Of a stretch of DNA of 64,000 nucleotides, positions 14,249 through 34,800 are shown one piece after another; position 1 is the first letter of the stretch, and each line of letters begins with the position of its first letter. A model generated the notes under the pieces. The model was not told the DNA's origin. It did not search any database and worked only from the letters and a program-made list of their open reading frames with translations. The translations under genes and the position numbers were made by a program. Source of the stretch: a virus (taxonomy: Duplodnaviria > Caudoviricetes); IMG/VR virus record IMGVR_UViG_3300043414_000372, positions 96,001 through 160,000 of that record. The stretch is one strand, 5' to 3'.

Positions 14249-14267
14249 AATTGTATTTATCTTAAAC

Positions 14268-15827: not shown

Positions 15828-15846
15828 AATGAGTATTTATTACAAA

Positions 15847-18721: not shown

Positions 18722-19694
18722 TCATATATTTATCTTTATTGAAGTATGGATCATTAATTAACCATTCATAATACTTTTGAAAACCTTCAGCTACATCAAC
18801 TTTGGGGTCAAAGCCAAAGTCTCTACGTGCAGCATCAATGTTCAATGCTCCCCGTGATGGGAAATCACTATCCTTGGGATACACAGATAGTGTACCGCCA
18901 CCTGCTAATTTTAATGCCATTTGTGCTGCTTCTAATAATGTAACGCTATGGCTTTTTGTAATATTGTATGTTTTGTTTTCGGTGTTATCGCTTAGTGTGG
19001 CCGCAACAATTCCATCAGCAGCGTCATCAACATAAGTAAAGTCTAGTGTTTCTTTTTCACCGTTTACTTTTATTGCGTCACCTCGCATTGCTGTAAGTAA
19101 GAATTTACTGATAACTCTATCTTCTACATCAAGTGGTCCGTACACAGCACTTGGACGAATGATAGTATGAACAAGATTCGTTTTGCGAGAATAATCACGC
19201 ACCAGCCATTCGCCTGCTAATTTCATAATGCCATACTGACCTTGAGGTTTACAAATAGCATCTTCTTTTACATCATCAGTAAAGTCACCATATACCATTG
19301 AACTACTAAGATATATAAATTTACGGACTTCATACTTGTTACTTGCTTCTAACAGATTAAGTAATCCTTCGCTCATTGTACGACTACCCAATGCTGGATT
19401 AGCGTTAACTACTTTCTGTCTAGGGAAACTAGCTAAGTGAATAACAATTTCTGGTTCTTCAATACTAAAGATTCTATCTAATTCTTCACTATTTGAAATA
19501 TCTTTATTATAGACAAAACTTATATCGCCAATTTTTTGTTGACGTTCATTTATCAAGTGATTTATTTCAGCTTGAGGGATGATGCCATAGTTAGTCTTGT
19601 TATCAACTATTGATACTTGGTGACCTAGTTTTTGTAAACGTGATACTACATTGTGTCCGATAAGGCCTAGACCACCTGTTACTAAAATATTCAT
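18696..19694 (-). CDS. NAD-dependent NDP-sugar epimerase/dehydratase
   Basis: GGLGLIG, SSSMVYG, YGIMK (YxxxK), RPSAVYGP, DFTYVDD. Confidence 0.9.
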   Translation of the reverse strand: MNILVTGGLGLIGHNVVSRLQKLGHQVSIVDNKTNYGIIPQAEINHLINERQQKIGDISFVYNKDISNSEELDRIFSIEEPEIVIHLASFPRQKVVNANPALGSRTMSEGLLNLLEASNKYEVRKFIYLSSSMVYGDFTDDVKEDAICKPQGQYGIMKLAGEWLVRDYSRKTNLVHTIIRPSAVYGPLDVEDRVISKFLLTAMRGDAIKVNGEKETLDFTYVDDAADGIVAATLSDNTENKTYNITKSHSVTLLEAAQMALKLAGGGTLSVYPKDSDFPSRGALNIDAARRDFGFDPKVDVAEGFQKYYEWLINDPYFNKDKYMNVDSIISS

Positions 19695-27660: not shown

Positions 27661-28308
27661 GTGATGAAACCCACAATCGCATTATTTCTATACGACCCAA
27701 AATGTTCCGTACAATCTGGAAATGGGATGATGAGGGCTTTGAGTGAATATTACAACTTCAAAATCTTTAGCAAGAACAAATTGGAATATGATTTCTTTGA
27801 TGATGTGGACATGATTGCCGTTCCCGGTGGAATTGGTGATAGTGATACATTCAAACAACTATTCAAAAACAATGGGAAACGGGTAACTGACTTCATACAT
27901 AATGGCGGTAGATATTTGGGTATCTGTATGGGAGCATATTGGGCAGGTAGTTATTATCTAGATGTATTGGATGAGGTTGATGCTGTTCAATATATTAAAC
28001 AACCCGGAACTGACACACGTAGACCACATGCTAAAAATTTACCAATAACATGGAAAGATGAACGCATGAATATGTTCTTCTATGATGGTTGTGCATTGGT
28101 TGGTAATAGACACAAATTCAAAACAATTGCTACATACGCCAACGGCGATCCAATGGCAATATATCAAAAACGCATAGGACTAATTGGTTGTCATCCTGAA
28201 TCAGAACCATTTTGGTATGATAGCTATAGTTATATGCGTGACAAATGGCACGGCGGTAGACACCATGAGTTGTTGTTAGATTTCACTAACGACTTAATGA
28301 AACGTTAA
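27661..28308 (+). CDS. BPL-N-like class I glutamine amidotransferase-fold protein
   Basis: VPGG, YLGICMGAY nucleophile elbow, HPE; ATAAATA just upstream. Confidence 0.78.
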   Translation: MMKPTIALFLYDPKCSVQSGNGMMRALSEYYNFKIFSKNKLEYDFFDDVDMIAVPGGIGDSDTFKQLFKNNGKRVTDFIHNGGRYLGICMGAYWAGSYYLDVLDEVDAVQYIKQPGTDTRRPHAKNLPITWKDERMNMFFYDGCALVGNRHKFKTIATYANGDPMAIYQKRIGLIGCHPESEPFWYDSYSYMRDKWHGGRHHELLLDFTNDLMKR

Positions 28309-29015
28309 TTCCAATATTTGGACGAGTCTAAACTGTCCCAGTACTTCTTATTGTTGCGATTGACAAAGTTCTTAACTAGATACTTAGCCATTCCCATATA
28401 ACCCATCTTCTTAAATCTACGACTGTCTTGTCCAAAGTGATGTTTTACGATTCTAAACTTCTTAGGACTATATTTCCTAGACAAGAAATAGTCCTCTGAC
28501 GTTGAAAACTGTTCCGGGAATCCACCATACTCATCAAACTTATCTTTCCTAGTTAGCATAAATGCTCCAACCGCAAAGGGTGAGAAATATTTCAATGTGT
28601 GATTTATAGTGTTAAAAATAGTAAACCCAAACTTTGCTCTTATGTCATTGTCATAGCACTTGATGTTCAATCCAACAAGATCAAGGTTCATTGATTCAAT
28701 TTTATTGACAGCATCATGGATCACATCGTATTTAAAAAAACGAACATCAGCGTCAATGAATAAGATGTAGGGAGTAGTAACTAATCTTGCTCCATTGTTC
28801 TTGGCCACTGAAACAGGTCCTCCCTCAATGATCTCAACATTCAATTCAAAACTGGTATCACGTATAACTTGTCTGGTGTTATCCGTAGAGCAATCAGCAA
28901 TAATGACTCTAGTATCACCTATGTTTTGTGAACGTAATGAATCTAATAGATGATGAATATAATCTTCTTCATTCTTACAGGGTACAACTATAGTAATTTT
29001 ATCACTTAATTTCAT
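28305..29015 (-). CDS. GT2 family glycosyltransferase
   Basis: IVVPCKNEE, IIAD..STD, FIDAD, GGF, ED, SRRF; overlaps plcP-like stop by 14 nt. Confidence 0.88.
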   Translation of the reverse strand: MKLSDKITIVVPCKNEEDYIHHLLDSLRSQNIGDTRVIIADCSTDNTRQVIRDTSFELNVEIIEGGPVSVAKNNGARLVTTPYILFIDADVRFFKYDVIHDAVNKIESMNLDLVGLNIKCYDNDIRAKFGFTIFNTINHTLKYFSPFAVGAFMLTRKDKFDEYGGFPEQFSTSEDYFLSRKYSPKKFRIVKHHFGQDSRRFKKMGYMGMAKYLVKNFVNRNNKKYWDSLDSSKYWN

Positions 29016-29763
29016 TGTCCTTCTCCTTAGTCCAAGTAACTATTTCCCAACGACCGTCCCAATGTTCTACAAGTGCTGTACAGGATTCAACCCAGTCACC
29101 ATCATTCATGTATTTAATACCATCAATGTCTTTAATCTCTGCATGGTGAATGTGTCCACAGATAACACCATCAAACCCACGTTTTTTACAATAGGTTGCG
29201 AGATTTTTTTCAAAGTGGAATATGAAGTCTACCGCTTTCTTTACTCTTGCTTTGAGATATTTACTAAGACTAAAATACCCAAAACCCATGCGATGGCGTA
29301 GCCAATTGAATTTGCTATTAACTGATAAAATGACATCATATGCTTTGTCTCCTAAAAATGCTATCCAAGGTGCCAATCTAGTTATACCGTCAAACATATC
29401 TCCGTGTACTACAAGATAATGTTTGCCGTCTGCACCTATATGTTCTATTTGATTATGTATCTCAATGAGTCCAAAACTGAACCCATAGGGTATCATGGGC
29501 CGCAAGAATTCGTCATGATTTCCTGCAATATACACGACACGAGTGCCACGTTTAGCATGACCGAGAACACGACGGACCACATTAGTGTGGCTTTGTTTCC
29601 ATCTCCATTTGTTTTGTTGAATTCTCCAGGCATCAATTATATCTCCTATTAAGTATAATGTATCACATGAATTGTGTTTCAAAAAGTTATTTAATTTTTC
29701 AGCTTGACTATCTTTTGTACCCAAATGAACATCGGATACAAATATTGATCGGTAAGTTTTCAT
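29002..29763 (-). CDS. plcP: PlcP-like / LpxH-like (COG2908) metallophosphoesterase
   Basis: SDVHLG, GDIIDAW, GNHDEFLR, HGDMFD, CGHIH, NDGDWVESCTALVE; GNHD rather than the GNRD of E. coli-type LpxH. Confidence 0.72.
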   Translation of the reverse strand: MKTYRSIFVSDVHLGTKDSQAEKLNNFLKHNSCDTLYLIGDIIDAWRIQQNKWRWKQSHTNVVRRVLGHAKRGTRVVYIAGNHDEFLRPMIPYGFSFGLIEIHNQIEHIGADGKHYLVVHGDMFDGITRLAPWIAFLGDKAYDVILSVNSKFNWLRHRMGFGYFSLSKYLKARVKKAVDFIFHFEKNLATYCKKRGFDGVICGHIHHAEIKDIDGIKYMNDGDWVESCTALVEHWDGRWEIVTWTKEKDNEIK

Positions 29764-29794
29764 ACATTGTTGTTCTCACTCTTATTGTTATAAT

Positions 29795-29865
29795 AAAAAA
29801 GAGCCTTGCGGCCCTTAGTACTGGTTACGAGTTCCAGCTTCCGCTCAATCTTGCGGTCGGTTATT
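29795..29865 (-). ncRNA. Structured leader / candidate small RNA ending in an intrinsic terminator
   Basis: Hairpins CCGC/GCGG, GCTGG-AACTCGTAA-CCAGT and AAGGGCC-GCAA-GGCTCTT + T-tract between promoter and RBS. Confidence 0.5.
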
Positions 29866-29868
29866 TGT

Positions 29869-29907
29869 ATTGTATTTAGTGTCTTGCATATGACAATAAT
29901 ATGACAT
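29869..29907 (-). promoter_or_regulatory. Pho-box-overlapped sigma70 promoter (plus embedded TAAATA)
   Basis: TGTCATAT direct repeat at 11-bp period (29899-29906, 29888-29895); TTGTCA-N16-TACAAT. Confidence 0.7.
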
Positions 29908-29912
29908 ATGGT

Positions 29913-29933
29913 TAAAGGGGCAGTGCCCCTTTA
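29913..29933. terminator. Terminator after porin
   Basis: TAAAGGGGC-AGT-GCCCCTTTA. Confidence 0.8.
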
Positions 29934-29955
29934 TAATCAATGTGATTAGATTGGA

Positions 29956-30840
29956 TTAGAAATTGTGTTCCATACCCAATGCATACTTAGTAGTTGTTGC
30001 TGTTGCATCTTCTTTGATGTAACGAGCATGAACTGTTGTACGCTTGCTTAAACTATAGCTTGCGCCTAAGTCTAATGCTTTAGTAGTATTGTTCTCGCCA
30101 TAGCTAGCAAGTGCCATCAATGCTGAAGATACTGGTTGATTAACACCAATACTTTTACCAGTTGAAGTTACGCCTGCAACTTTGTCATCAGAATAAGTAG
30201 CGAAAACAGTTGTACCTGTTTTTTCAACCTTAACTCTTGCACCATAGATTGTTGAAGTACTTGTTGTACCGTTATCAAAACTTGCTACAGTAGCACTGAT
30301 TGGACCACGAGTAAATTCAATACTAGCAGCTTGCGGGTTATTAACGCCTGCTACTTCGCTATTGCTATTGATGTAGTTAACAGTTAAACCAGCCATTGGA
30401 GTAGCTGAAACGAACAACGCATTACTGAAACGTGAACCTTGAGCAGCGTGAATGACTGCGGTACTAGAACCGTATACATTACTCATTGCGTCATAGTTAT
30501 CAAGTGTACGTGCGATTGTGTGCTTGTCACGACCAACATTAACTGAACCTAAACTGTTTGACAAACCTACAATCATAGTTCTGTCGCCCAATGTAGTTGC
30601 TGCTGGAGCATCTGCACCGATACCAGTTTCAATTGTGAAGTTAGCAGATAGTCCGCCACCTAATGCTTCAGTACCTTTAAAACCCAAACGACTTGTATCG
30701 TTAGTGAGTGCTGTTACTGCTGACGCAGATCCAACTGTTACTGATTCTTCATACACACGCATTTTACCGTAAACGGCTACTTGTGCTGATGCTGCAAAAG
30801 ATACAGCGGCTAAAATTGTCGCAAGTGCGATTTTCTTCAT
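29956..30840 (-). CDS. Gram-negative trimeric porin (betaproteobacterial type)
   Basis: Signal peptide AASA, V.VYG, SRLGFKGTEALGGGLSANFTIE, C-terminal GMEHNF (terminal Phe). Confidence 0.9.
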   Translation of the reverse strand: MKKIALATILAAVSFAASAQVAVYGKMRVYEESVTVGSASAVTALTNDTSRLGFKGTEALGGGLSANFTIETGIGADAPAATTLGDRTMIVGLSNSLGSVNVGRDKHTIARTLDNYDAMSNVYGSSTAVIHAAQGSRFSNALFVSATPMAGLTVNYINSNSEVAGVNNPQAASIEFTRGPISATVASFDNGTTSTSTIYGARVKVEKTGTTVFATYSDDKVAGVTSTGKSIGVNQPVSSALMALASYGENNTTKALDLGASYSLSKRTTVHARYIKEDATATTTKYALGMEHNF

Positions 30841-30972
30841 ATTAAATTTCCTTTAAAAAAAACCTGATTGCTCAGGCTAGATTAATATTTAGCGGGAGAA
30901 ATACAGTCAAATAAATTATGTATTCTCGCAAAGTAAGTATACTGATTGCGTAATGTATGCTAGTTGATAAAG

Positions 30973-30996
30973 GAAAAGACACCGAAGTGTCTTTTC
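30973..30996 (-). terminator. Terminator closing tmRNA gene
   Basis: GAAAAGACAC-TTCG-GTGTCTTTTC (cUUCGg). Confidence 0.88.
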
Positions 30997-31305
30997 TGGT
31001 TGTTTCTTTTATACAGTAAGTCCTACTGCACCTTAGCCTTAAGCGGCTAAAGAATATAACTCATCGTTTGCAGTTATTGATTTTATGCGATTAACGGTCG
31101 TCATCTACCGAGTTGCCGTCGCTGACTATTTGCCCAATCGATTACCAGAGCAGGCCCATCATAAACACATAACAAGGGTTCCAGTTACGTCATTCTGTTT
31201 ACCACCGTCAAATGACGATACTGCACGGTCTATGTGTTTATGGTGGACCTGGCCGGATTCGAACCGGCGTCTTGAACACATCCTCTTTGAAGGAATTACA
31301 ACTAT
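30997..31305 (-). ncRNA. ssrA: Circularly permuted (two-piece) tmRNA: acceptor piece ~31305-31241, intervening segment 31240-31158, coding piece 31157-~30997
   Basis: T-arm GCCGG-TTCGAAT-CCGGC, CAGGTCC-A-CCA; 5' strand GGGCCTG lies downstream; G3.U70 pair; tag ANDELYSLAA* at 31071-31039. Confidence 0.93.
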
Positions 31306-31313
31306 CTTTTTAT

Positions 31314-31643
31314 TTATCGTTGATAGCAATTACGCTCACGGTAAATTTGACCATCAGGTTGTTGAATCTCTTTCCAAGAAGTACAAACTGTTTGCGGTTG
31401 CTGAATAATAACTTGCTCACGTTGAACAACAACTGGTTGTTGATTGGCATTAGCAATTGCTGCTCCTGCAATTCCGCCGATGATTAATGGGGCTATCCAA
31501 TCATTACGTTCAACAATAACTGTGCGAGGTTCCCAACGAGGTCCGCAATTGTGATGACGATGATCTATTCCCCAACGACAATCTTGGGCAAAAGCCATGG
31601 TACTGACCATTAATGTTACTGCAACCAAAAGTAATTTTTTCAT
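31314..31643 (-). CDS. Small exported protein with Gly-zipper-like segment
   Basis: Signal peptide AFA, IIGGIAGAAIA, Cys pairs. Confidence 0.7.
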   Translation of the reverse strand: MKKLLLVAVTLMVSTMAFAQDCRWGIDHRHHNCGPRWEPRTVIVERNDWIAPLIIGGIAGAAIANANQQPVVVQREQVIIQQPQTVCTSWKEIQQPDGQIYRERNCYQR

Positions 31644-31885: not shown

Positions 31886-34800
31886 AGTTTGTATTTAGTC
31901 TCATAGTATGTTCTTAACCAAGCCCAATCGTAACTCAATCGTAATTTCTCAAAGTCACCATTCACCTCATTGTAGTATTCTACAGCATGTTGCGCTGAAT
32001 CCAAACTGTATTGGGCGAATTTGCCTAATCCAACATTTAGCCAATAATCTAATCGTTCTTCATTTTCATCAGTTTTGGATGCTTTAAGTTTAATACATTC
32101 ACGGAACGCAGTACGCCAGGTGTCCCATTCGCTAGTATTAAACATTGCAGTTCCACTATTAACTTCAACAACTTCATGTTCACTATCCATAGTAAAGTCT
32201 AATCCAGTACCAAAGTTTGCTAAGGTAAGTTTCTTGTTGTTAGCAACAATAGCTTGGTGACCATATACTAATCCATTTACAGGATTTGTCGCATGGAAAA
32301 TATAATGTTTTGGTATCTGTAAACGATCTGGTTGCCAATCAAAATCAAACTTAGCATCAACTTTCAATTTAGCATTAACTAAGAAGTACCATGGGGTATT
32401 ACTACTAGTTGCTGCCGCATGTTGACTCTTTACACGACCACTTACTCCATCTATTCTTACAACCTTGTTTGTTAACTTTTCAGTTAGTTTCAACAAGTGT
32501 TCATAGTTAGATTCAGCACTAGCTTCGCCGTTACTAAAGAATACAATGTCCAATGGGTTAGACTTAGCTAATTTACTATTAGTCATAATGTATGGATAAT
32601 CATACAATTCTTTCTTTACATAGTCTTTAGCTTCTTTGGGCACAACAATACGTGTTCCGCCCATGCTAGTTATCTGAATATTCCTAGACTCAGGTGACCA
32701 TAAACTGATTGGTTCTACATCAAGTACATTAACGTCTTTGTTATCTGCTGTAACAAATACAGCATAAGGGAAGTTAAATTCTGTTTTGATACTAGATACA
32801 TGACTATCACCTTCAGTAACTATAACTGGGGCAGGCAATCTCTTAACACGTTGACTTTGATTGAAGTCAATCTTAGTATAATCATCAAGTATCTTCAATT
32901 GCTTAATCAATGAACGTAGTTTGTTAACATCAATTAAGAATGTATCACCAAACTTTTGTTTATCACTAGGGAATACATGTAGTTGTTCTTTAGCAAACGG
33001 GTCACATATATAACTAAAATCAAAAGTACTATAATCACATACACTACTACATATCCAAAGATAATGTTCTTTCTTCTCTGGCAATGTTCTTAATAGTTTA
33101 ATAAACGTTTTAAGATATGTTGTGTCAAACTTGATTGTAGTGACTGGCAAGTTGAATTCAGGTGCGTCATTGCCATGGTCAATATAAACAATATCATATA
33201 GACGATTAACGGCTCTTGCCTTTTTGCTTTTAACAAAGTTAAGCATGGATAGATGTTCAATGATCTTCACGTACTTTGTATCTTCAATGAAGGTTTCTTT
33301 ATTAACCATAAAGGTCGTACCCCAATGACTCCATTGTGTTCCAAACACATGAATCATTTTCATTTGCCATGGACTAGGATAGAAATCGAATTCAAAGTTT
33401 CCATAATCTAATTCGCTATTCAATACCCAGAACAGTTTAGTTTCAGATTTGTTTATACAACGAGTGATTGTGTCTACCCAACTGTTAAGATATCTTGTCT
33501 TTTGTAGTTGTGGGTAGCGTAGTTTCAATTCTTCAAAACGTTGATTACTCTCACTATTACTTCTATCAATAAAGAACATACTCAAGTTACTATCAACTTG
33601 AACAGATTGTCCTTCAACATAGTTATATTCTTTATGTCCCTTCATATACATAGGTCCGTTGATATAGTATGTTTGTGTATCTTTACTATATTCATTACCA
33701 AATACATTTATGTGACGGAAGTTTTCCTGATTAGGTCTCCAACTAAAGTCAAACTTATCATAGTTCAAGTCAGGATTGATAGCCCAGAATACTTCTTCGG
33801 GATGTTCTTTAACTAGTTCATCTAATGTTGTTTTAATAGGATAACGATTGACTATTGTTTTTTTAGTTTCACCTGTATGTTCCATTAACACAACTTCAGT
33901 TGCCCCAACTACAGTGTAACGCGGCCCGTTATCTTGCCACTGATATATTTGAGGCGGGCTATATGGGTTAGGTCTCCAACTAAAGTCAAATGTTTCTAAG
34001 TCATCGTTGTTACTAATAGACCAATATTGTAAATCTGCCTTAGGCAACGCAACTGGCTCAGTCATATACTTGTATTCAGTTGCTCCTTCAACGTGATATT
34101 CAACTGATGGTTCTGTATTGGCATCATTCCATTTGTTACCAAACACATAGATGTAGGGTGGGCTAGTTGGGTCAGGTCTCCAACTATAATCAAACGATTC
34201 AATAGGTATTAAACGTTTCCATTGATTATCTGTAGCAGTTGATTTTACTAATCCAACTGTAGATGTTACATATTTCTTATCTGTTGCCCCAGGCATATGA
34301 TATTCTACAGTAGGATCAGTTATACCATCATACCATTGATTACCAAATACATATATGTAAGGTGGAGAATGCGGATTAGGTCTCCAACTATAATCAAACA
34401 CATCAACAGGTATAAGTGTTTTCCAATACTCTTGTGTCTTTGCTGCTGTAGCAACAATTTCTGTAATATATTTCTTTTCAGTCGCACCTTCTACATGATA
34501 TTCTACTGTAGGTTCAGTCATAGCATCATGCCATTGATTACCAAATATATATATGTAAGGTGGGCTATCAGGGTCAGGTCTCCAACTATAGTCAAAGTTA
34601 TCTACAGTAACTAATATCTTCCAGTTTTCAATCATCGGCAATGTTTTAGCTATCTTATCATCCATGTACTTGCGTTCAGTGGCACCTACGCAATGATATT
34701 CTATAGTAGGTTCTTTTACTGCGCTATTAGATTGATTGCCCCATACATAAATGTATGCCGGTTCTCTTGGATCAGGTCTCCAAGTAAAATCAAAACTAGT

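Follow-up and report, generated by a model that had tools for sequence, protein, structure and literature searches.

The stretch of DNA described here (the window: 64,000 nt, positions 96,001 to 160,000 of IMG/VR record IMGVR_UViG_3300043414_000372) comes from a viral record of 229,851 bp that belongs to a jumbo freshwater phage. CheckV puts the completeness of this record at 61%, so that the full phage genome is perhaps ~375 kb and at least 230 kb. Our subject is a locus in which a gene for a PlcP-family metallophosphoesterase (the esterase) is followed by one for a family 2 glycosyltransferase (GT2), and in which a direct repeat resembling a Pho box lies upstream of both (Table 1). An earlier note, made from the letters of the window alone, had reported an 8-bp repeat at 11-bp spacing ahead of this pair, and we do find TGTCATAT twice on the minus strand at 29906-29890, as TGTCAT (29906-29901), ATTAT and TGTCAT (29895-29890). 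The coupling of the two genes that it proposed is also borne out, in that the open reading frames overlap by 14 nt and AAGGAG lies ahead of the GT2 start. The box is situated 143 nt upstream of the esterase ATG, with a two-hairpin RNA element (designated R1) and an intrinsic terminator in between.

Table 1. Features of the esterase-GT2 locus and its surroundings, in window coordinates
Feature	Position	Strand	Basis or remark
Pho-box-like direct repeat TGTCAT-ATTAT-TGTCAT	29890-29906	-	two half-sites, 11-bp period
TAAATA, conserved -10-like element/late-type promoter core	29873-29878	-	11 nt downstream of box
TTGTCA-N16-TACAAT	29896-29869	-	promoter scan, 10/12 matches; TACAAT 29869-29874 overlaps TAAATA
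R1 two-hairpin RNA element	29818-29862	-	covariance model
Intrinsic terminator	29793-29816 (stem-loop 29799-29816 + T run)	-	7-bp stem, GCAA loop
PlcP-family metallophosphoesterase, 253 aa	29002-29763	-	Pfam Metallophos 2e-12
GT2 glycosyltransferase, 236 aa	28305-29015	-	Pfam Glycos_transf_2 4e-21
Class I glutamine-amidotransferase-like gene, 215 aa	27661-28308	+	BPL_N 41.5 bits, GATase 22.4 bits
Porin gene, upstream neighbour	29956-30840	-	Porin_4, 2e-23
Beta-type two-piece tmRNA	30948-31353	-	137 bits
Hairpin terminator of porin gene	29921-29940		precedes box; same order in relative L003

The identity of the esterase is central to any interpretation of the locus. Its metal-binding motifs (DxH, GD, GNHD/E, H and GHxH) are intact, and D11, H13, D41, N82, H83, H120, H204 and H206 do not vary among 40 homologues. 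With LpxH it shares a calcineurin-like fold that includes a helical insertion, and one could suppose that it is a true LpxH, that is a UDP-2,3-diacylglucosamine hydrolase, which would boost or rewire lipid A synthesis: annotations in IMG and in phage records read 'LpxH', and the match to solved LpxH structures (including P. aeruginosa LpxH, 5B49) is full-length, if weak, with E about 1e-4. We regard this as very improbable. The esterase scores 46.5 bits on the LpxH equivalog model NF003743 (cut-off 134) and 34.3 bits on TIGR01854 (cut-off 190.35), far below both cut-offs, and five bacterial genomes each possess a true LpxH at 218-338 bits as well as a separate phage-like paralogue at 42-54 bits. 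A maximum-likelihood tree splits off LpxH by a long branch with 100% support and gathers the phage esterases in a single clade (99%) within the paralogues, with the pelagiphage Mosig copy as neighbour. In addition, many of the close homologues are alphaproteobacterial, and Alphaproteobacteria use LpxI instead of LpxH. Virus surveys count the gene as "lpxH" under lipopolysaccharide (LPS) biosynthesis (PMC10653327, PMC9611531), and such inventories may therefore misassign it.

The paralogues among which the phage proteins fall point instead to PlcP. The best matches of the esterase in species genomes share 50-58% identity and are distributed over Alpha-, Beta- and Gammaproteobacteria, with Limnohabitans, Caulobacter, Azospirillum and Pseudomonas among them, and a scan of 1.8 billion cluster representatives gave 928 at E <1e-30, with 40-54% identity. 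Upstream of the cellular paralogues TGTCA recurs with an 11-bp period, and an agt-like family 4 glycosyltransferase (GT4) gene comes directly after them; this is the plcP-agt arrangement of marine bacteria and P. aeruginosa, where an LpxH-like metallophosphoesterase gene is followed immediately by a glycosyltransferase gene and preceded by a Pho box (PMC4796936, PMC8528852). Exemplars of this operon are S. meliloti SMc00171, Phaeobacter MED193_17359, SAR11 HTCC7211 PB7211_983/960 and P. aeruginosa PA3219-PA3218. The closest cluster representative lies in a cluster of an aminolipid-type acyltransferase, a GT4, the esterase and a further GT4, and another adjoins CHAD, PPK2 and histidine-phosphatase genes. 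Four metagenomic representatives (P0165, P0166, P0247 and P0265) are natural GT4-esterase fusions of 564-663 aa, which lend Rosetta-stone support to a functional coupling of both enzymes in cells. Membership of PlcP rests on this operon context of the nearest cellular homologues; the validated PlcPs are themselves only 46-47% identical to one another (PMC8528852). The PlcP-like call of the earlier note, and its suggestion of a phylogeny against LpxH, thus lead to the same place, and the data support assignment of the esterase as a predicted PlcP-family protein and not an LpxH.

Relatives of the phage esterase are abundant: there are at least 8000 metagenomic proteins and at least 596 viral stretches, and hundreds of the close ones (88-100% amino acid identity) are found on viral contigs up to 524 kb. 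Most relatives carry a low-complexity, Ser/Thr/Arg-rich C-terminal tail of ~40 aa that the window esterase lacks (253 versus ~293 aa), and in place of the tail the end of the window gene overlaps the GT2 start (29002-29015). A distant homologue (37% identity) is present in the freshwater cyanophage Synechococcus phage S-SRM01 (MW015081.1; L192:3998-4702), where it is annotated UDP-2,3-diacylglucosamine diphosphatase and adjoins psbA and homing-endonuclease genes; its placement in the tree is unsure because its branch is very long.

The glycosyltransferase lies directly behind the esterase in about 70 of the 82 related loci that we compared. It has a DxD motif and a basic amphipathic C-terminus, the protein as a whole has no transmembrane part, and its structure model (pLDDT 85.7) has a GT-A fold whose matches are generic (CrtQ, AglE, TarS/TarP and polyprenol-phosphate mannosyltransferase). 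The best Swiss-Prot and PDB fold matches are GT2s with lipid or polyprenol acceptors (CrtQ, AglE/AglI, PcManGT and Glyco_transf_21/Pgt), and Pfam Glyco_transf_21 is matched at 30.3 bits against a threshold of 21.7; identities to these proteins are only 15-22%, however, and none of the matches points to diacylglycerol as the acceptor. About 10 sibling loci are more informative, as they have in the same slot a GT4 of 332-337 aa with 37-44% full-length identity to bacterial agt-like genes. Because two unrelated glycosyltransferases alternate behind one conserved esterase, this exchange argues that the GT2 and the GT4 probably do the same job, which in bacteria is the glycosylation of diacylglycerol. 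The window enzyme is not itself a member of Agt, being a GT2 of GT-A type without the GT-B domains Glyco_transf_4 and Glycos_transf_1, although it may work like one.

These same matches allow a different reading, in which superinfection is excluded or receptors are masked through changes that the pair makes to the host surface (LPS, O-antigen or another glycoconjugate), with the esterase acting on a sugar-nucleotide or a lipid-linked intermediate. The GT2 matches the PHROG family 'GtrB-like O-antigen conversion' (8e-7), its fold is like those of TarS, TarP and polyprenol-phosphate transferases, and glycosyltransferases of pelagimyophages have been interpreted in this way (PMC7029224). Nevertheless we consider the idea improbable, since the module is linked to pstS and to a Pho-box-like site, an agt-like GT4 occupies the slot of the GT2, and the nearest relatives of the esterase are found in lipid and phosphate contexts.

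The direct repeat fits the layout of a proteobacterial Pho box, reading aTGTCAT-ATTA-tTGTCAT followed after 11 nt by TAAATA, and PhoB is its predicted binding protein. In the E. coli type the consensus is CTGTCAT-N4-CTGTCAT (PMC8528852), and our criterion was two 7-bp CTGTCAT-like direct repeats 4 AT-rich bp apart, ending ~10-11 bp upstream of the -10. The number of repeats is not significant by itself: TGTCAT-N5-TGTCA has one exact match in the window against 0.08 expected, with at least one match in 7 of 100 shuffles, and the wider motif TGTMAY-N5-TGTMAY has one match in the window (0.25 expected) and one in the whole 229,851-bp record. It is position that gives the repeat its weight. In the 82 loci, plus-strand matches to the wider motif occur only before the esterase, before pstS or before a gene for an acidic protein, and in most sibling phages the box lies 38-51 nt before the esterase ATG. 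Genome G005 (320 kb) has the motif twice only, once before the esterase and once before pstS, and genomes G001, G002 and G004 have three or four matches each, two of them at the module. A conserved box in homologous phage loci, which the earlier note had looked to as a check, is therefore present. In a 95%-identical relative (L003) the homologous site reads TGTAAC-ATTAC-TGTCAC, still within the motif, so that the A/C and C/T variants are interchangeable, and betaproteobacterial pstS promoters (of Limnohabitans, a Burkholderiaceae genome and Chromobacterium) share the half-sites. Together these observations support the direct repeat as a conserved, presumably regulatory site common to plcP-GT and phage pstS. 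We also entertained the box as a general promoter motif of the phage and dropped this, as a single occurrence in 230 kb and its absence from the other late promoters speak against it.

The sequence that follows the box is equally constrained. The earlier note had placed a TTGTCA-N16-TACAAT promoter over the repeat, and this string is present, but the conserved downstream element is not its TACAAT; it is instead the TAAATA that overlaps it, a phage late-promoter motif. In 40 of 48 distinct box promoters the gap between box and TAAATA is exactly 11 nt, and in 7 of the 48 it is 21-22 nt, one helical turn more. In the window, the start codons of the terminase and structural genes likewise have TAAATA 4-6 nt ahead of them, which suggests T4-like late promoters and leaderless or near-leaderless mRNAs, while other window genes have perfect TTGACA-N17-TATAAT promoters (27635, 26459 and 26143). 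The element often occurs as GATAAATA or AATAAATA, for example at 14249-14267, 15828-15846, 18722-18740 and 31886-31905. The box thus has the look of an addition to a late-type promoter, of a sort whose messages are often leaderless, and does not seem to replace a sigma-70 -35 element. In this phage family the putative composite promoter of box and TAAATA is found only ahead of plcP-GT, pstS and one acidic protein.

This architecture could also mean that a regulator different from host PhoB uses the repeat as its operator, or that the repeat distinguishes a subset of phage late promoters, and that the module consists of plain late genes that do not respond to phosphate. The fixed distance of 11 nt to an element that stands ahead of terminase and structural genes agrees with such a view, as does the experience with cyanophages, in which predicted Pho boxes proved unreliable (PMC10976474). 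On the other hand the repeat motif is missing from the other late promoters, being confined to plcP, pstS and one more gene, and it matches both CTGTCAT-N4-CTGTCAT (PMC8528852) and the sites before bacterial plcP and pstS. Moreover, a search of five phage records, of which four are near-complete, gave no DNA-binding domain of the OmpR/PhoB type, which points to a regulator supplied by the host. We consider another regulator or plain late genes unlikely for these reasons.

Comparison with relatives explains why the window box is so far from the esterase. In the alignment with L003 a stretch of 1,017 bp containing a gene for a 338-aa PstS is inserted exactly between TAAATA and R1, and this stretch is missing in the window. 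The window box is thus the predicted promoter of a cargo cassette, which holds pstS in L003 and is empty here. R1 comes 27 nt after the promoter and is followed by the terminator, which is kept behind pstS in L003, L006 and L080. In the related loci R1 without exception closes the box-driven unit at its 3' end, either behind pstS, behind the acidic-protein gene or directly behind the glycosyltransferase gene (further copies are at L003:3902-3946, L082:6690-6734, L206:1501-1545 and elsewhere), and a structured leader that had been noted separately is explained if R1 is the tail of the cassette with the cargo absent. Linkage to pstS extends more widely, in that pstS adjoins the module in 12 of the 82 loci in three arrangements, and in the cultured Pelagibacter phage Mosig it is divergent from a PlcP-like gene annotated "putative UDP-2,3-diacylglucosamine hydrolase". 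The 150-nt spacer that these two Mosig genes share (MT647606.1; L191:3851-4000) contains TTTAAC-N5-CTTAAC repeats with an 11-bp period, resembling the cyanobacterial type of Pho box, and no GT2 is found downstream.

R1 itself is ~45 nt long and forms two hairpins, of which P2 is CUGG-AACUCGUAA-CCAG and P1 covaries. A covariance model finds a single copy in each of six related jumbo phage genomes and 29 matches in the loci. In the alignment 99.4% of cells are paired, 19 cells are changed on both sides and none of 500 shuffles scored as high, with compensatory changes at three of the four P1 pairs and at one P2 pair, although these counts lean towards structure because the alignment was fitted to the model. 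Rfam gave no match in the leader or R1, at either gathering or E-value thresholds. The alternative cargo in place of pstS is a very acidic protein of 215-330 aa, rich in Ala, Val and Glu and with coiled-coil-like ends (L067:5709-6356, L050:5710-6366, L060:5703-6650, L004:5473-6465 and L206:769-1464). It has no Pfam family and matches in phages only, and as alternative cargo of the Pho-box/R1 cassette it may be a phosphate-stress protein.

Taken together, we favour with moderate confidence the view that in this locus the pathway by which bacteria renovate their lipids in phosphate starvation exists as a phage copy, placed behind a host-type Pho box and reached in this phage by read-through. In a phosphate-starved host, phosphorylated PhoB would bind the box, and transcription would start near 29867 to give first an RNA of ~75 nt consisting of R1 and the terminator. 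In the window phage plcP-GT2 would be reached only by read-through of the terminator. A phospholipase C of the PlcP type would then cleave phosphatidylethanolamine, phosphatidylglycerol or phosphatidylcholine of the host to diacylglycerol and a phosphorylated head group, and the GT2 would glycosylate the diacylglycerol to a glycolipid, the role played by the GT4 enzyme Agt in bacteria and possibly in some sibling phages. The phosphate set free could feed synthesis of phage DNA (for a genome of at least 230 kb) with the membrane kept intact. Of the Pho-switched operon put forward in the earlier note, the conserved box shared with pstS stands, and the switch is to be qualified: R1 and the terminator separate the box from plcP, and Pho control of plcP-GT2 in the window therefore depends on read-through.

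Several observations weigh against this proposal and should be set beside it. The terminator lies between the box and the operon, and scans of the interval between the terminator and the esterase ATG show no sigma-70-like or TAAATA promoter. The element after the box is a phage late-type TAAATA and not a sigma-70 -10, whereas PhoB activates through region 4 of sigma-70. The PlcP side of the tree consists of cellular paralogues known by their operon context, and not of the validated PlcPs (SMc00171, MED193_17359, PB7211_983 and PA3219), and for all phage copies the activities of PlcP and GT2 are what we infer from sequence. The GT2 is a generic GT-A enzyme, and the cellular homologues closest to it (31-36% identity) are partnered by a VTT/DedA-LssY_C membrane protein instead of PlcP; among 401 Pseudomonadota genomes it has 12 matches with 26-36% identity, several of them paired with such a protein and none beside a PlcP-like gene, and around the 80 closest cellular esterase genes no homologue of the window GT2, of the amidotransferase-like protein, of pstS or of the porin was found as a neighbour. 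Finally, in the cyanophage study already mentioned, a predicted Pho box in a phage was often no guide to PhoB binding or to induction (PMC10976474).

The terminator in particular raises the question of what the box transcribes. It might drive nothing beyond a small RNA of R1 plus terminator, in which case plcP-GT2 would depend on some other promoter or be weakly transcribed, whatever the phosphate supply. The arrangement lends itself to this, as R1 lies 27 nt behind the promoter and is followed by a terminator with a 7-bp stem, a GNRA loop and a T run, and as across six genomes it is R1 that accompanies the box cassette throughout, the cargo being variable or absent. Yet the lack of any other promoter-like site ahead of the esterase, noted above as a difficulty for our own proposal, is one for this explanation too. 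In L017 box, pstS, R1 and esterase follow one another without a terminator and would thus form one operon, and most siblings have their box directly before the esterase, from which it appears that selection for Pho-linked expression of the esterase is general. Contigs from one RNA-labelled library span 29458-29805 and 29726-29862, and in three RNA-labelled libraries there are short contigs 85-95% like the esterase and leader; these give a weak hint of read-through, since contigs do not show single transcripts, starts or levels and carry-over of DNA is possible. No RNA library is listed among the sequencing runs for the exact stretch. On balance a box that serves the small RNA and nothing else seems to us unlikely.

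A related possibility, which we rate as rather unlikely, is that R1, and not the protein cargo, is the core of the cassette. R1 would then be a phosphate-starvation small RNA that is either derived from a 3' untranslated region or stands alone. Such an RNA could act on targets of the host or the phage, or could govern the read-through of the terminator and in this way gate plcP-GT2.

The predicted module of esterase and glycosyltransferase is best understood against three known systems. It is like the bacterial PlcP-Agt operon in combining an esterase distinct from LpxH with a downstream glycosyltransferase and an upstream box, and some siblings even carry an agt-like GT4, but unlike it in being encoded by a jumbo phage, in having as partner a 236-aa GT2 in place of a GT4, in coupling the box to a late-type TAAATA, and in the RNA element and terminator that precede the window operon. 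Like the PhoBR-controlled pstS genes of cyanophages (P-SSM2 pstS; S-PM2d, PMC10976474), it is predicted to place phage genes under the phosphate-starvation regulator of the host, and pstS lies within the module in many relatives and in pelagiphage Mosig. Unlike them, it has a box of the proteobacterial TGTCA type and not the cyanobacterial PyTTAAPyPy(T/A), and the cargo in the window is a predicted membrane-lipid pathway and not uptake or nucleotide recycling. From LpxH, notwithstanding the common fold, the esterase differs in its clade, in its genomic context and in its score on the LpxH model.

The surroundings of the locus deserve brief mention. Besides the locus, the window carries genes for the terminase, for structural proteins and for a Gram-negative porin, as well as for the two-piece tmRNA, and a search with it against phage DNA gave as sole match 139 bp of pelagiphage Mosig. 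The Porin_4 porin and the beta-type tmRNA sit just upstream of the box, and together they hint at a betaproteobacterial host. On the other side the amidotransferase-like protein has GxCxG and HPE motifs, and its gene is convergent with the module. In relatives this gene adjoins the esterase-GT pair in several arrangements (L004:3294-3953, L060:3326-3967 and L066:5634-6281), and because it stays beside the pair across these differences the module may have it as a third member. Some sibling phages have a further membrane-lipid gene as immediate neighbour of the pair, for a fatty-acid desaturase (PF00487; L050:3200-3949 and also L029, L052 and L064).

The bacterial PlcP-Agt pathway and host Pho control of phage pstS are already known. 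The earlier note was not aware of any description of the pair as a phage module, and our literature search likewise found no paper describing a phage-borne PlcP-glycosyltransferase module. To these known systems the window adds the emptied pstS cassette, the RNA R1, the fixed geometry of box and TAAATA and the exchange of GT2 and GT4 in one slot. If our proposal is true, the pair would represent auxiliary metabolic genes of a new class, which mine the host membrane for phosphate. Phosphorus is often limiting for freshwater and marine bacteria, and each copy of a phage genome of at least 230 kb (perhaps ~375 kb) holds roughly 0.5-0.75 million phosphate groups; by a rough estimate, the pool of phosphorus in membrane phospholipid is of about the same order as that in the host chromosome. 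The rigid pairing of Pho box and TAAATA poses the testable question of how a response regulator of the host could cooperate with late transcription of the phage. R1, an RNA found once per genome and without an Rfam match, is linked to this regulon as well, and should the cassette prove to be built around it, R1 and the lipid enzymes together would give the phage a multi-part regulon for phosphate stress, connected to the PhoB of the host by way of late-type promoters.

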